Source: Nitrospirota bacterium
Lineage (GTDB): Bacteria > Nitrospirota > UBA9217
Assembly: GCA_963754875.1 (NCBI GenBank)
Contig: CAVWHO010000016.1
Span: 576,001 to 640,000 of the forward strand
DNA length: 64,000 nucleotides
Direction: 5' to 3'
Positions 24,557-51,891 of the stretch are shown piece after piece; the first letter of the stretch is position 1, and the number at the start of each line of letters is the position of its first letter. The translations under genes were made by a program, and so were the position numbers. The notes beneath the pieces are model-generated. The model did no database searches. It saw nothing but the letters and a program-made list of their open reading frames with translations, and was not told where the DNA came from.

Positions 24557-24628
24557 CGTCATTCCCGCGCAGGCGGGAATCCAGGATTCTCAATCTGTCA
24601 CTGGATCCCCGTTTTCACGGGGATGACG
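24557..24628. repeat. Inverted pair of CGTC-type REP (ATTCCC-N8-GGGAAT, dRS3-like) units
   Basis: CGTCATTCCCGCGCAGGCGGGAATCCAG ... CTGGATCCCCGTTTTCACGGGGATGACG. Confidence 0.75.
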
Positions 24629-49289: not shown

Positions 49290-49385
49290 GCCCCTTTTCA
49301 CTGCAATGTCAGCGATAAGGGATAAATTTCGCTTGACATTTTCGCGAGAATAATAGATATTACCACTCTCCAAGTGGTTGGAACC

Positions 49386-49461
49386 GGGCGGATAGCTCAG
49401 CTGGGAGAGCACAGCCCTTACAAGGCTGGGGTCACAGGTTCGATCCCTGTTCCGCCTACCA
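49386..49461 (+). tRNA. tRNA-Val (TAC)
   Basis: 76-nt cloverleaf, anticodon arm CAGCC-CTTACAA-GGCTG, GTTCGA T-loop, CCA end. Confidence 0.95.
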
Positions 49462-49470
49462 TTAATATCA

Positions 49471-49558
49471 TAGTTCAGAGTACAAAGTTCAGAGTACTGA
49501 GTATAAGGAAGCTGACTTTGATTTTCACTTTGAACTTTCAACTCTGCACTTTGTACTA
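49471..49558. repeat. Heptamer tandem repeats arranged as a long imperfect hairpin
   Basis: AGTTCAG/AGTACAA units followed by complementary ACTTTGA/ACTCTGC/ACTTTGT units. Confidence 0.65.
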
Positions 49559-49566
49559 TTCCTTAA

Positions 49567-49633
49567 GGGGTGGTAGTTCAGCTGGTTAGAACGTCCCGAC
49601 TGGTTGGGAAGGTCGCCGGTCCAGAATACCGTC
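49567..49633 (+). other. Degenerate tRNA-Asp-like copy with replaced anticodon arm
   Basis: First 27 nt identical to tRNA-Asp at 49680, then TCCCGA-CTGG-TTGGGA, AGGTCGC and a degenerate T-arm; no 3' acceptor strand. Confidence 0.75.
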
Positions 49634-49679
49634 TCGAGCGTTAATTTAAGTGACGATGTAAAGTTTCTCCTCAAAAAAT

Positions 49680-49756
49680 GGGGTGGTAGTTCAGCTGGTT
49701 AGAACGCTAGCCTGTCACGCTAGAGGTCGCGGGTTCGAGCCCCGTCCGCCCCGCCA
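49680..49756 (+). tRNA. tRNA-Asp (GTC)
   Basis: 77-nt cloverleaf, anticodon arm CTAGC-CTGTCAC-GCTAG, GTTCGA, CCA end. Confidence 0.95.
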
Positions 49757-49777
49757 TTCATACCTGCCAAATTTCCC

Positions 49778-50029
49778 ATGCCGTTCTATGTCTATATTTT
49801 ACAGAGCCAGAAGGATGAGTCCCTCTACATAGGACAAACTTCAAATATAGAAGAACGCCTGTTGCGTCACAATCAGGGAAGATCAACGTATACAAAATCT
49901 AAAAGACCCTGGAAATTGCTCTATTATGAATCTTTTAATTCCAGGTCCTCTGCCGTAGGGAGAGAGAAGGAATTAAAATCATTCCACAGGAAAGATCTTC
50001 TCATGGGATTAATAAGGTCAGCTGATTAA
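49778..50029 (+). CDS. Stand-alone GIY-YIG nuclease (UPF0213-like)
   Basis: FYVYIL...LYIGQT...RL..HN...YTK..RPW...A..RE..LK. Confidence 0.9.
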   Translation: MPFYVYILQSQKDESLYIGQTSNIEERLLRHNQGRSTYTKSKRPWKLLYYESFNSRSSAVGREKELKSFHRKDLLMGLIRSAD

Positions 50030-50061
50030 AAACGTCCCGACGAGTCGGGAACTCTTTTCGA

Positions 50062-51891
50062 TTACTTCCTGATCTTCCCCATCCTCTTCGCCAAACGCTC
50101 CGTCTCATCCAGCAGCTTTTCCACTTCATTCAGCCCCCTGTCCCAGAACCGCTTGTCGGCTATGTCGATCCCGAGCCGGCCAAAAATATTCTTCGGCGAT
50201 TCGGAGAGCCCAGCAGAAAGGAATTCTTTCACCTTGTTAATGAAGACAGGATCATTCTTTACAGAATTCTGGAGCGATTTGGAAATCAGAAGTCCACTCG
50301 CGTAGGAATAGACATAGAAGAAATACCGGATATGGTTCCAGTAAACCCACCAGTTCTCCGAGCCCGCTGACTGCTCCACGGCCTTTCCCATGTATGCTGC
50401 CATGTGCTTCTGAAATAGTTCCCCGATCGCTTCCTTCGAGAGATACCCGCTGGCGCGAAACGCCTTATGCAGCTCCTGCTCAAATCGGTAGCAGGCAACC
50501 TGCCGGAAGATGGACGAAACATCGTCGTTCAATTTCTGCATCATGATCGCAAGCCGCAGTTCATCATCAGCAGAATGGATGATCTCTTCGAGCACAAAAT
50601 CCTCCATGAACGTGCTCGCGACCTCAGCAGTGGAAGTCGGGGTGCCGAAATCAAGGGCGTGCTGTTTTTCCCGGATCAACTCGTTGTTGATCCCGTGGCC
50701 GAGCTCGTGTGCTATCGTGAGGACATCGTGCAGCTTGTTCGTATGGTTCAGGAGGATGTACGTTGGCTGGGTCATGAGATGGTGGATACAGAAGGCGCCG
50801 CTGTCCTTGCCTTTGCGGGGGTAGGCGTCAATCTGACCGTTCTTGATGAACCCGGCAAAGATCTCGCCGAACTTCCGGTCAAGCTTGTTCATGACAGTAT
50901 AGACGAGGTTCACTGACTGCTGATAAGGATAGCGCGTCGCAACGACGCCGTACTCCACGTTCCGCTCATGATACTCAAGTCTCTTAATCTTGAGCATCTT
51001 CGCCTTGAGCGCGTAATACCGTGACGGGATGTCGAAACGGCCTGCTACGGAATCGATCAGAGTGTCCACGACCTCGCTCTCGATGTCGTCGGCAAGATGC
51101 CGGAGAGTATCCGGTCTCGGCGAACTGCGGAGCTCGTCGTCGATTTTCTTGTTCTGCAAAACGGAATTGAGCTCAGCCTCGGCGATTTCCACGTTCTTCA
51201 GCAGTATGTCGTTGAAAGCATGTGCTGAAGAATCGCGGACCCGTTTGCTCTTGCTGTTCATGAGGCCGATGATCTCCGTGAACGGCAGGTTTTTTTTCGT
51301 CCCTTTTTCCGTCAAGACAACCCGCTCTTCCTTGGAGAGGAAACCCGACGTCATTTTCGTCCAGTTAGCATAGGAGGTGGCCGATTTGAGGTTCAAAATT
51401 TTTTCTTCTGGTTCGCTCAGGTGATAACGCGATTCTGCAAAGATACGCTCCAGAAAGTGGCGGTATTTTGTGAGGGCCTCGTGATCGAGAAACTTCTTCT
51501 GGGCTTCCGGCTTGACCCTCGCGATGCGCAGATAAAAAAACTGACTCTCGTTCTCCAGCTTCTTGCTGAAGTCTTCTAACTTGTTGAACTTGGCTTTGAG
51601 CTTTGCGTCGATTTGGTCCTGCTGCGTCCTGAGCCAGAAGTAGTAGCCCTCGTCCCCGTCGGTCCCGTAGTGCCGCTTCCACGATTCATATTGGTCGAGC
51701 GCCTGCCTGAGGATGAGGGGGTCTTCCAGATAATCCGTGCGGTCCTTCCATGCGTTGATGAACTCGTAGCTTTTCTGTTCCACGATCTTTCGCTTTTCTT
51801 TCATGCGCGGGTCGGTATCACCCCGGAAAAGCGGCTTGAAGTTCCAGACTGTGCGCTCTACCTTTAAACCATTTTGTCGAATAGGGGCCAT
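50062..51891 (-). CDS. pepF: M3B family oligoendopeptidase F
   Basis: KDSGAFC, HELGH zincin motif, AEVASTFME, FYVYSYA. Confidence 0.85.
   Translation of the reverse strand: MAPIRQNGLKVERTVWNFKPLFRGDTDPRMKEKRKIVEQKSYEFINAWKDRTDYLEDPLILRQALDQYESWKRHYGTDGDEGYYFWLRTQQDQIDAKLKAKFNKLEDFSKKLENESQFFYLRIARVKPEAQKKFLDHEALTKYRHFLERIFAESRYHLSEPEEKILNLKSATSYANWTKMTSGFLSKEERVVLTEKGTKKNLPFTEIIGLMNSKSKRVRDSSAHAFNDILLKNVEIAEAELNSVLQNKKIDDELRSSPRPDTLRHLADDIESEVVDTLIDSVAGRFDIPSRYYALKAKMLKIKRLEYHERNVEYGVVATRYPYQQSVNLVYTVMNKLDRKFGEIFAGFIKNGQIDAYPRKGKDSGAFCIHHLMTQPTYILLNHTNKLHDVLTIAHELGHGINNELIREKQHALDFGTPTSTAEVASTFMEDFVLEEIIHSADDELRLAIMMQKLNDDVSSIFRQVACYRFEQELHKAFRASGYLSKEAIGELFQKHMAAYMGKAVEQSAGSENWWVYWNHIRYFFYVYSYASGLLISKSLQNSVKNDPVFINKVKEFLSAGLSESPKNIFGRLGIDIADKRFWDRGLNEVEKLLDETERLAKRMGKIRK

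Follow-up and report, generated by a model that had tools for sequence, protein, structure and literature searches.

A candidate selfish cassette at bacterial tRNA genes: a minimal GIY-YIG nuclease gene with hairpin-swapped tRNA copies

The tRNA-Asp locus of a Nitrospirota genome

The DNA analysed here is a stretch of 64,000 nucleotides from a Nitrospirota bacterium (assembly GCA_963754875.1, contig CAVWHO010000016.1, positions 576,001 to 640,000 of the forward strand; henceforth the window, in whose coordinates all positions are given). Directly behind its tRNA-Asp gene lies a small open reading frame (ORF) encoding a single-domain GIY-YIG nuclease, and the two genes are bracketed by partial copies of the same tRNA gene that carry a GC-rich hairpin in place of an arm; we refer to the whole as the cassette. 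An earlier note on this DNA had described a 27-nt copy of the tRNA start, the hairpin TCCCGA-CTGG-TTGGGA, the intact tRNA-Asp, a GIY-YIG ORF 21 nt further on and a stop codon inside a second copied D-arm, and we find each of these parts where it had placed them. The cassette is composed as follows.

49567..49636, + strand: upstream dead partial tRNA-Asp copy, consisting of the tRNA 5′ part, a hairpin and a remnant of the variable loop and degenerate T-arm
49680..49756, + strand: intact tRNA-Asp(GTC) with encoded CCA (ARAGORN; Rfam tRNA model, 68.8 bits)
49757..49777, + strand: leader of 21 nt from the tRNA 3′ end to the ATG (sequence and consensus scan)
49778..50029, + strand: ORF of the single-domain GIY-YIG nuclease, 83 aa, stop included (Pfam PF01541, E 1.5e-18)
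50015..50034, + strand: D-arm-like tRNA-Asp remnant overlapping the end and stop of the ORF (repeat family D1, 82% identity to the D-arm)
50035..50050, no strand assigned: downstream hairpin TCCCGACGAGTCGGGA (TCCCGAC-GA-GTCGGGA), a perfect palindrome (pattern search)

The upstream copy begins as an exact duplicate of the tRNA gene, all 27 bases of its first part (49567-49593) being those of tRNA-Asp positions 1-27. At the very point at which an anticodon arm would begin, the sequence passes into the hairpin TCCCGACTGGTTGGGA (TCCCGA-CTGG-TTGGGA, 49594-49609) and then into AGGTCGCCGGT, which matches AGGTCGCGGGT, the variable loop and first part of the T-stem in tRNA-Asp, at 91% identity. The rest of the copy (49610-49636) consists of this variable loop and a degenerate T-arm, and the 3′ strand of the acceptor stem is missing. 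When compared with two genomes of the same genus that have no detectable cassette (G003 and G004, see below), the window carries an insertion of 113 nt after tRNA position 27, in which the hairpin and the remnant of variable loop and T-arm are followed by a spacer and by positions 1-27 copied anew.

On the other side of the ORF, the stop codon TAA (50027-50029) falls within AGGTCAGCTGATTAAAA, in which the D-arm recurs for a third time at 82% identity and which encodes the last codons of the ORF. In the ORFs of this kind the last five to ten residues (for example ...IRSAD or ...VRTSR) are D-arm read in frame. This remnant aligns with the D-arm part of the downstream copies in two relatives (G010 and G027). 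The perfect hairpin follows, and behind it stands ACTCTTTTCG, where relatives have the tRNA 3′ half; the fuller downstream copies of the relatives thus appear to show the original state of the remnant in the window. The cassette of the window is partly decayed, with a downstream copy that lacks its 3′ half and an upstream hairpin with one mismatch, while its ORF is intact.

The earlier note had called both copies tRNA mimics, a label that we replace by truncated dead copies. The upstream copy scores 17.5 bits on the Rfam tRNA model against a gathering score of 29, the downstream copy, a D-arm fragment plus hairpin, gives no match at all, and ARAGORN calls neither. In folds, acceptor pairing forms in neither copy, although their D-arm and T-arm-like hairpins can form. 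That such copies are expressed as functional tRNA-like RNAs without an anticodon, serving as decoys, regulators, processing signals or partners of the nuclease, is a reading we regard as very improbable. The copies do lie within the tRNA operon and would be transcribed, and in some other genomes full-length swapped copies exist that ARAGORN calls as tRNA-???. Both window copies, however, lack an acceptor stem, the downstream one has lost its entire 3′ half relative to the relatives, and the truncation points of such copies differ among genomes. Moreover, SsnA, the GIY-YIG protein of a comparable system (see below), did not interact with RNA (PMC11893778).

The setting of the cassette is a short tRNA operon facing a convergent gene:

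49333..49361, + strand: promoter-like site TTGACA-17-GATATT, 5′ of tRNA-Val (consensus scan only)
49386..49461, + strand: tRNA-Val(TAC), first gene of the operon (ARAGORN; Rfam tRNA model, 67.0 bits)
50062..51891, − strand: pepF, encoding an M3-family oligoendopeptidase F, a convergent neighbour outside the cassette that served as anchor for the allele comparison

The promoter-like site is the single one found on the + strand between 49200 and 50200 by the consensus scan, and the tRNAs and the ORF are predicted to be transcribed from it. The leader of the ORF contains neither a promoter-like site nor a Shine-Dalgarno-like sequence, which bears out the remark of the earlier note that the ORF has no clear ribosome-binding site. 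Relatives keep a TTGACA...TAGATATTAC context ahead of tRNA-Val, itself a conserved neighbour of tRNA-Asp in these genomes, and the distance from tRNA to ORF in related loci ranges from 1 to 183 nt, mostly 8-62 nt. ARAGORN finds tRNA-Val and tRNA-Asp but no further tRNA in the window, and this tRNA-Asp gene is the only one among 42 tRNAs in the 4.3-Mb assembly (90% complete). The genes around the cassette encode a DUF4149 protein, an acetyl-CoA hydrolase/GNAT fusion and the M3 peptidase; a Pfam scan of these neighbours revealed no integrase or recombinase.

The spacer between tRNA-Val and tRNA-Asp has a structure of its own: 49469-49557 form a long imperfect inverted repeat with 27-nt arms of 81% complementarity, which contains a 14-nt tandem CA(T/A)AGTTCAGAGTA. 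Spacers like this one (GTTCAGAGTAC/GTACT...GAACT) occur in G003, G004, G010 and G180, and the inverted repeat may serve the tRNA operon as a stem for processing or insulation.

Recurrence in Nitrospirota and at other tRNA genes

Full-length orthologues of the ORF are encoded in four other Nitrospirota genomes (G010, G006, G018 and G027, the last from a different family than the window genome) at 66-72% identity, and in all four the gene stands immediately 3′ of tRNA-Val/tRNA-Asp. Among named relatives of the ORF, the nearest belongs to L033, a Nitrospirae metagenome-assembled genome. The downstream copies of these orthologues are better preserved than that of the window. In G006 and G018 the ORF continues into (G)TTAGAACG, the end of the D-arm, followed by GTCCCGAC-NN-GTCGGGA and then AGGTCGCGGGTTCGAGCCCCGTCCGCCCCGCC(A), which is the complete 3′ half of tRNA-Asp. 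In G010 and G027 the T-arm is likewise swapped, for TCCCGAT-N(3)-ATCGGGA. G006 carries a second tandem unit from which the ORF is deleted, and in G018 the 21 nt after the tRNA (leader plus four codons) recur behind the downstream copy. The upstream copy is present in the window genome, G010 and G018, and absent from G006 and G027.

The convergent pepF gene allowed us to compare alleles of the same site within the genus of the window genome, where eight loci are readable from tRNA-Val to pepF. These pepF-anchored alleles fall into three states:

Intact cassette: G000 (the window genome), G006 and G010
Decayed ORF behind tRNA-Asp: G001 and G011
No cassette detectable: G003, G004 and G014

Of the two decayed alleles, G011 also has an upstream copy, with the stem CCCGG/CCGGG, and at the DNA level its ORF remnant stands out only marginally, its score being reached by 9 of 300 shuffles; the ORF remnant of G001 was detected by tblastn alone (E 3e-4). 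The closest of the genomes without a cassette is G003, whose pepF is 94% identical. A MAFFT match that would make the G003 spacer a decayed cassette was rejected as insignificant, since 147 of 300 shuffles scored as well. The earlier note had proposed a search for empty alleles; alleles with no detectable cassette exist, but none of them is near-identical to the occupied one. We note that G014 (L119) has, where a cassette would lie between tRNA-Asp and pepF, an unrelated ORF of about 70 aa that by eye resembles an S4/YbcJ-type RNA-binding protein.

We then extended the view to 401 Nitrospirota genomes with a pattern that joins the hairpin to its variable-loop flank, CGTCCCGAC-N(2-8)-GTCGGGAAGGTC. 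It occurs in 10 of them, once each, and its reversed control in 0. An intact ORF is present at five of these 10 loci, an ORF with an in-frame stop at one and none at four, and some of the ORF-less loci carry tandem upstream units (G391 and G254). All seven newly read pattern loci lie at or beside a tRNA-Asp gene or pepF.

The arrangement is not confined to tRNA-Asp. Among the 80 best matches to the window ORF in species genomes, a set that is neither random nor free of related, non-independent genomes, 31 have a same-strand tRNA ending no more than 200 nt upstream of the ORF. These 31 loci cover 10 isotypes (Asp, Val, Gly, Met, Thr, Ala, Glu, Ser, Ile and Pro), and their hosts include Desulfobacterota, Bacteroidota, Zixibacteria, Acidobacteriota, WOR-3 and a gammaproteobacterium. 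Alignment of the region at the ORF stop with the upstream tRNA covered 26 of the 31 loci, the other five being covered by the hairpin scans, and this region proved to copy the same upstream tRNA at 16 of the 26, with local alignment scores of 28-51 against control maxima of 9-17. In these copies one arm is interrupted or swapped by a GC-rich palindrome. Homologues of the ORF thus do carry the tRNA-like flanks whose absence the earlier note had named as a finding that would speak against it.

Tandem arrays, which the earlier note had suggested looking for in relatives, were found as well, both as the second unit of G006 and on a Bacteroidales contig (L039) with full and truncated hairpin-swapped copies of tRNA-Val, two intact tRNA-Val genes and two identical ORFs. 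The order on this contig is three tandem full-length swapped copies, tRNA-Val, a swapped copy, tRNA-Val and an ORF, followed by a truncated copy, two full copies, the identical second ORF and further copies. Another Bacteroidia contig (L149, G405:C39, positions 1043-1570) shows a different order at tRNA-Ala: first comes a full-length swapped copy, which has a duplicated 5′ flank of its own, then the ORF, then the real tRNA-Ala and last a truncated swapped copy. The same genome has a further cassette at tRNA-Pro with a different stem variant.

A link between hairpin and ORF emerged from counts around the stop codons. Of 39 tRNA-linked ORFs, 17 have the pattern TCCCG-N(3-24)-CGGGA near the stop (-50 to +140 nt). 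It is present in 3 of 640 control windows taken from these loci, and near the stop of 3 among 70 ORFs that have no tRNA upstream. Near the tRNA-linked ORFs there are 41 perfect 7-bp stems beginning TCC (the search demanded perfect stems, so pairing itself is no evidence), of which 34 begin TCCCG and one is the genuine anticodon arm of a tRNA-Thr. Stem positions 6-7 vary, and a variant is often shared by the upstream and downstream copies within one locus; the commonest variants span several isotypes, TCCCGAC occurring with Asp, Glu, Met and Val. Most flanks are ...GCG or ...ACG before the stem (22 of 41 copies) and AGGTC or AGATC after it (22 of 41), and therefore the hairpin replaces exactly positions 27-43 of the tRNA.

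Is the hairpin simply a dispersed repeat? In the window the hairpin pattern has three matches at two sites, because a palindromic site counts on both strands, against 0.19 expected from shuffles, and none of 100 shuffles reached three. A loose form has 19 matches in the 4.3-Mb genome, with the D-arm flank at the window's two sites only, and the strict form GTCCCGAC-N(0-8)-GTCGGGA has a single occurrence in that genome. A looser pattern has 17 matches in five other genomes, 15 of them at cassette loci, and its reversed control has none. In one of the five, tRNA-Ala is the site of a second cassette, which has an ORF of its own, about 40% identical to that of the window, and a separate stem variant. 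Two matches in G402, C67:6213 in coding-looking sequence and C45:18436, have no tRNA or ORF nearby and were treated as chance. With two tRNA-flanked copies in the window genome and one per positive Nitrospirota genome, a genome-wide repetitive extragenic palindrome (REP), the second outcome that the earlier note had held to be damaging, is ruled out.

The nuclease and the systems it resembles

The ORF matches the Pfam GIY-YIG family PF01541 with 67.3 bits (cut-off 22.6) over profile positions 2-74 of 78, and beyond this Pfam reports only a weak, overlapping T5orf172 match. Judged from an alignment of 31 relatives including the window ORF, in which Y6, Y17, G19, R27, H31 and E63 are invariant, the predicted protein has the catalytic residues of the GIY-YIG superfamily: the tyrosines of the GIY and YIG motifs, the arginine, the histidine and the glutamate. 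An AlphaFold2 model (pLDDT 90.8) places strands at 3-10, 16-21 and 45-53 and helices at 24-33, 56-68 and 72-82, so that the predicted fold is a three-stranded sheet with flanking helices as in that superfamily. The best fold matches of the model are UPF0213 protein BH0048 and the nuclease domain of Slx1 (6seh), with TM-scores of 0.70-0.72 and root-mean-square deviations of 2.1-2.4 Å; Foldseek E-values are 4.5e-5 to 5e-4 for UPF0213 and Slx1 and 0.7 for the homing endonuclease I-TevI (1ln0). By sequence the best match is 1zg2 (E 3.6e-8), which Foldseek matches as well. No PHROGs family matches the ORF, and no NCBIfam model does so above its cut-off, the group I intron endonuclease model reaching 19.1 bits against a cut-off of 56. 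The gene is under constraint, with ratios of nonsynonymous to synonymous substitution rates (dN/dS) of 0.10-0.13 in the three of 10 orthologue pairs whose dS was computable, the other pairs being saturated.

In a quick tree of 111 rows, whose deep forks are weak, all 39 tRNA-linked ORFs fall within one half of 68 rows, and none falls among the other 43. Those 43 comprise an SsnA-like clade with canonical NTS flanks (support 99), a UPF0213-like clade (97) and sequences from Bathyarchaeia (98). The UPF0213-like clade is vertically distributed, includes the window genome's own paralogue and is never tRNA-linked. Within the tRNA-linked half, sister ORFs lie at differing isotypes (Met and Val, support 99; Ser and Glu, support 98). 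With the window ORF left out of the profiles, its score is 130.8 bits against the tRNA-linked one, 68.0 against the SsnA-like one and 65.6 against the UPF0213-like one. The SsnA-like set is a proxy, made of homologues with canonical NTS on their flanks (L027) and of related alpha-proteobacterial sequences rather than of SsnA itself, and it forms a clade (support 99) separate from the ORF. By sequence and predicted fold, the ORF product is a single-domain nuclease of the Slx1/UPF0213 kind, and its clade is not that of the SsnA-like proteins. A side branch of the tree is formed by three Bacteroidota loci (L069, L073 and L077; own clade, support 100; not tRNA-linked), in which the GIY-YIG domain of the broad group stands N-terminally in very long ORFs of at least 445-922 aa, lengths that are lower bounds as the frames reach the end of the retrieved DNA.

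UPF0213 proteins (BH0048 and EF2693) and Slx1 are the best matches of the ORF product in sequence and fold. Slx1 acts with Slx4 on branched DNA, whereas no partner protein is evident at the window locus. A separate UPF0213-like paralogue lies elsewhere in the window genome, and most relatives have it too, with no tRNA beside it. Like these proteins, the ORF product is a minimal domain that lacks the C-terminal asparagine typical of the UvrC and homing endonuclease lineage (PMC1564403).

The first system to be compared is Ssn/NTS. SsnA (cd10448) is a 94-aa single-domain GIY-YIG protein with a modulating role in the natural transformation of Neisseria. Its binding to the NTS hairpin CGTCATTCCCGCGMAVGCGGGAATCYRG (TTCCCGCG...CGCGGGAA) is confined to single-stranded DNA and requires both the sequence and the structure of the stem, and it cuts a few nucleotides 5′ of the hairpin (PMC11893778). 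Chenal et al. (2025) pointed out the insertion-sequence-like layout NTS-ssnA-NTS (PMC11893778). The cassette resembles this pair in several respects: a single-domain GIY-YIG protein of about 90 aa (here 83), a gene bracketed by GC-rich hairpins of the same type, a common palindrome core (TTCCCGCG...CGCGGGAA in NTS, TCCCGAC...GTCGGGA in the window), and hairpin variants that often track the locus or lineage of the ORF. It differs in that its hairpins stand inside tRNA-derived copies, in the exact place of an arm, and number one to five per locus, whereas NTS occur in tens to hundreds per genome. Among 112 loci, the published search motif for the hairpin repeats of the Ssn family, the SRM motif HGTCWY-N(0-2)-YYVSBRH-N(0-5)-WNVSBRG-N(0-2)-RNCYNB, matches only at L027 (canonical NTS on both sides and a third weak match) and L108.

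The window genome contains, apart from the cassette, about 11 canonical NTS-like repeats that fit the SRM motif. They are near-identical to the Neisseria NTS consensus (e.g. CGTCATTCCCGCGCAGGCGGGAATCCAG), intergenic, and often arranged as convergent pairs about 44 nt apart; one pair lies in the window (24557-24584 on the + strand and 24601-24628 on the − strand), and others were located at C13:97856/97899, C16:265894/265938, C16:451053/451100, C13:161220, C21:217989 and C22:63472 of G000. No member of the SsnA-like clade was found in the assembly, which is 90% complete, and the best match in it to an NTS-flanked SsnA-like query is the window ORF (E 3.4e-9, 39% identity). The window ORF may therefore act on the NTS-like repeats too, or the repeats may be orphans.

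Such observations bear on the possibility that the cassette is a domesticated host module, which would process single-stranded DNA in transformation or repair, or terminate or insulate the tRNA operon, its repeats being by-products of local duplication. A dN/dS of about 0.1 over saturated dS would fit a host function, as would the role of SsnA in Neisseria transformation (PMC11893778), the presence of NTS-like repeats in a genome whose closest SsnA-like protein is the window ORF, and a downstream hairpin that scores as a terminator on both strands. We nevertheless consider this reading unlikely. The cassette is patchy, being a pseudogene in two and undetectable in three of eight genomes at the same locus of one genus, and its hairpin-plus-flank pattern is present in only 10 of 401 Nitrospirota genomes; the tRNA isotype differs between sister ORFs, and tandem arrays and deletion derivatives are common.

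The second system to be compared is SegB, a free-standing GIY-YIG homing endonuclease in the tRNA cluster of T-even phages that cuts inside tRNA genes. Its nuclease activity acts with UvsX and UvsY to amplify segments in tandem, via homology between a tRNA 5′ region and the 3′ end of segB (PMC13096335). Like segB (PMC13096335), the ORFs described here are GIY-YIG genes among tRNA genes with no preference for an isotype, the 3′ end of the ORF is a copy of a D-arm, and relatives carry tandem units. SegB differs in being a phage protein of the I-TevI type that cuts double-stranded DNA and has a C-terminal part whose loss removes toxicity, and the available part of PMC13096335 mentions neither arm-swapped tRNA copies nor a conserved hairpin. 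The window ORF, by contrast, encodes an 83-aa chromosomal protein of the Slx1/UPF0213 type without a C-terminal DNA-binding part.

Classical homing of the SegB type would have the nuclease cut the double-stranded anticodon arm of a cassette-free tRNA-Asp, the gene copied into the break and the swapped copies rendered immune to cleavage, a role that the earlier note had considered possible for the swapped arm. This has the precedent of a GIY-YIG enzyme that sits in tRNA clusters and cuts tRNA genes (PMC13096335), and it would fit the observations that most copies have precisely the anticodon arm exchanged, judging by the flanks (22 of 41 on either side), and that every redundant copy is swapped while one stays intact. 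But an intact and presumably cleavable tRNA-Asp lies in cis in every occupied allele, and nothing would oblige immune sites of different isotypes and phyla to have the TCCCG...CGGGA core in common. The 83-aa protein, moreover, has no DNA-binding domain, no PHROGs family and an I-TevI match of E 0.7 only. We hold this version of events to be quite improbable. It is more likely that the swapped arm is the cassette's own recognition hairpin than an immune site, because its core recurs across isotypes and phyla and matches the NTS hairpin that SsnA binds.

A likening of Ssn to the IS200/IS605 and REP-associated (RAYT) systems is drawn in the Discussion of PMC11893778. It extends to the cassette, in which a small protein gene is likewise flanked by hairpins that would be its cognate single-stranded sites. 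The enzymes of IS200/IS605 and RAYT systems are HUH/Y1 transposases that form covalent intermediates. A GIY-YIG hydrolase is not known to join strands, and therefore any movement of the cassette must use host recombination.

With islands and prophages that use integrases the cassette shares the tRNA gene as its site, the duplication of part of the tRNA and the retention of an intact copy; it differs in having no integrase, a size of about 0.3-0.5 kb, a duplicated 5′ part and an arm swapped for a foreign hairpin. tRNA genes are common integration sites, several 3′-half tRNA fragments lie elsewhere in the window genome and the hairpin scores as a terminator, so one might take the locus for ordinary local duplication or the remains of an old integrase island, next to a housekeeping UPF0213 gene and a plain terminator. 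We give this reading next to no credence. It is contradicted by the three-part layout, found again at 10 isotypes and in several phyla, and by the counts that tie hairpin and ORF together. The neighbourhood has no integrase, and it is the tRNA 5′ part that is duplicated here, which integrase att sites are not known to produce. A separate UPF0213-like paralogue exists, and the ORF scores on the tRNA-linked profile about twice what it does on the UPF0213-like one (130.8 against 65.6 bits). The fragments elsewhere in G000 (C17:112186-146757, C20, C21 and C10) are 3′-half copies of tRNA-Met, -Ala, -Thr, -Arg, -Leu and -SeC, kilobases from the respective tRNA genes; they look like ordinary att-type scars, unlike the 5′-part copy at tRNA-Asp.

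A full-text search found no description of tRNA-linked mini GIY-YIG cassettes or of arm-swapped tRNA copies, including in PMC1564403, PMC11893778, PMC13096335 and bioRxiv 10.64898/2026.09.22.753630 (the latter's supplements excepted); the word tRNA occurs 0 times in the main text of PMC11893778, and in the supplement files searched, 12 of 14, it occurs only in gene descriptions. By analogy, the cassette would work like the Ssn/NTS pair and like SegB. It is not assignable to either family, because its hairpins depart from the SRM motif of the one and its protein from the domain type and size of the other.

A proposed mechanism for the cassette and what it would mean

The locus described here has an anatomy that recurs, a hairpin linked to its ORF, a series of alleles in which the cassette is present, decayed or absent, and an intact nuclease gene under constraint. 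We think it rather likely that it represents a recurrent small cassette, in which a promoter-less gene for an 83-aa GIY-YIG protein sits behind tRNA-Asp together with hairpin-swapped dead tRNA copies, and that this cassette is selfish and integrase-free. The claim of the earlier note, that this is a small unit of a GIY-YIG gene and tRNA-derived cis DNA tied to tRNA genes without an integrase, agrees with what we found, since the flanks of homologues are tRNA-like and the neighbours include no integrase.

From these comparative patterns we infer how the cassette may act, what it may target and how it may move. The ORF would be transcribed by read-through from the promoter of the tRNA operon. 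Its product, by analogy with SsnA and NTS, would bind the cassette's own hairpin in single-stranded DNA and nick beside it in the D-arm region. Breaks would then be repaired by host homologous recombination between the tRNA-derived repeats, for which SegB offers a precedent, and such recombination could make or remove tandem units, delete parts of the cassette and spread the hairpin into redundant tRNA copies. In the same way the cassette could be copied into tRNA genes that lack it, with the tRNA sequence as a portable homology arm, while selection would retain one intact tRNA, in the window genome its single tRNA-Asp.

Several findings weigh against this interpretation. At the locus itself, the upstream hairpin of the window has one mismatched pair, and the downstream hairpin (50035-50050), lying between the ORF and the convergent pepF, is terminator-like on either strand. 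Folding energies are unremarkable: the hairpins form, but with z-scores of +1.03, -0.73 and +0.18, and thermodynamics therefore adds no support. As to the analogy with Ssn, neither window hairpin fits the SRM motif, so that only the TCCCG...CGGGA core is common to both, and the ORF belongs to another clade and is no closer to the SsnA-like, NTS-flanked proteins than to the UPF0213-like ones. The split of the quick tree that holds all tRNA-linked ORFs is weakly supported (SH-aLRT 79), and the related loci were chosen as best matches rather than at random.

Nor were direct traces of movement found: among the genomes compared there were no near-identical cassettes at different sites, no near-identical empty allele and no fresh insertion. 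Public sequencing runs hold at most 0.21 of the sampled words of the locus, RNA runs 0.06-0.10, and these matches are likely to be shared tRNA genes of relatives. Between orthologues dS has reached saturation, and cassettes occupy the Val-Asp site in Nitrospirota, Desulfobacterota and Zixibacteria alike, which fits homing but possibly also long vertical residence at a conserved site. Strong purifying selection, finally, would equally fit a gene useful to the host and is no proof of selfishness.

A bolder version of the favoured reading, which we put forward tentatively and think doubtful as a whole, would make the cassette a new class of mobile DNA, in which a nuclease gene of about 250 nt and a 16-nt hairpin act as an arm-swapping drive on tRNA genes without transposase or integrase. 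The nuclease would nick the single-stranded cloverleaf DNA beside its hairpin; recombination between tRNA repeats would overwrite the anticodon arm, and sometimes the T-arm, of every spare tRNA copy with the hairpin; and the same process would duplicate the unit and carry the cassette into homologous tRNA genes of distant phyla, with the tRNA sequence, conserved in all organisms, as homology arms.

The cassette can be described as a hairpin-associated single-domain GIY-YIG nuclease or, equally, as a tRNA-associated free-standing GIY-YIG gene, both known kinds in a new form. It explains pseudo-tRNA and tRNA-??? annotations beside small GIY-YIG genes. If our reading is true, the cassette would be among the smallest autonomous selfish units known, consisting of one 83-aa nuclease and a 16-nt hairpin, and it would survive inside essential tRNA genes, where deletion is risky and near-universal conservation provides homology in distant hosts. 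It would join the hairpin-specific single-stranded DNA nucleases (Ssn, 2025) with the nuclease-driven amplification of tRNA genes (SegB, 2026) and extend both to bacterial chromosomes across phyla, and its natural nuclease and hairpin pairs with varied stems may serve as site-specific tools for single-stranded DNA.

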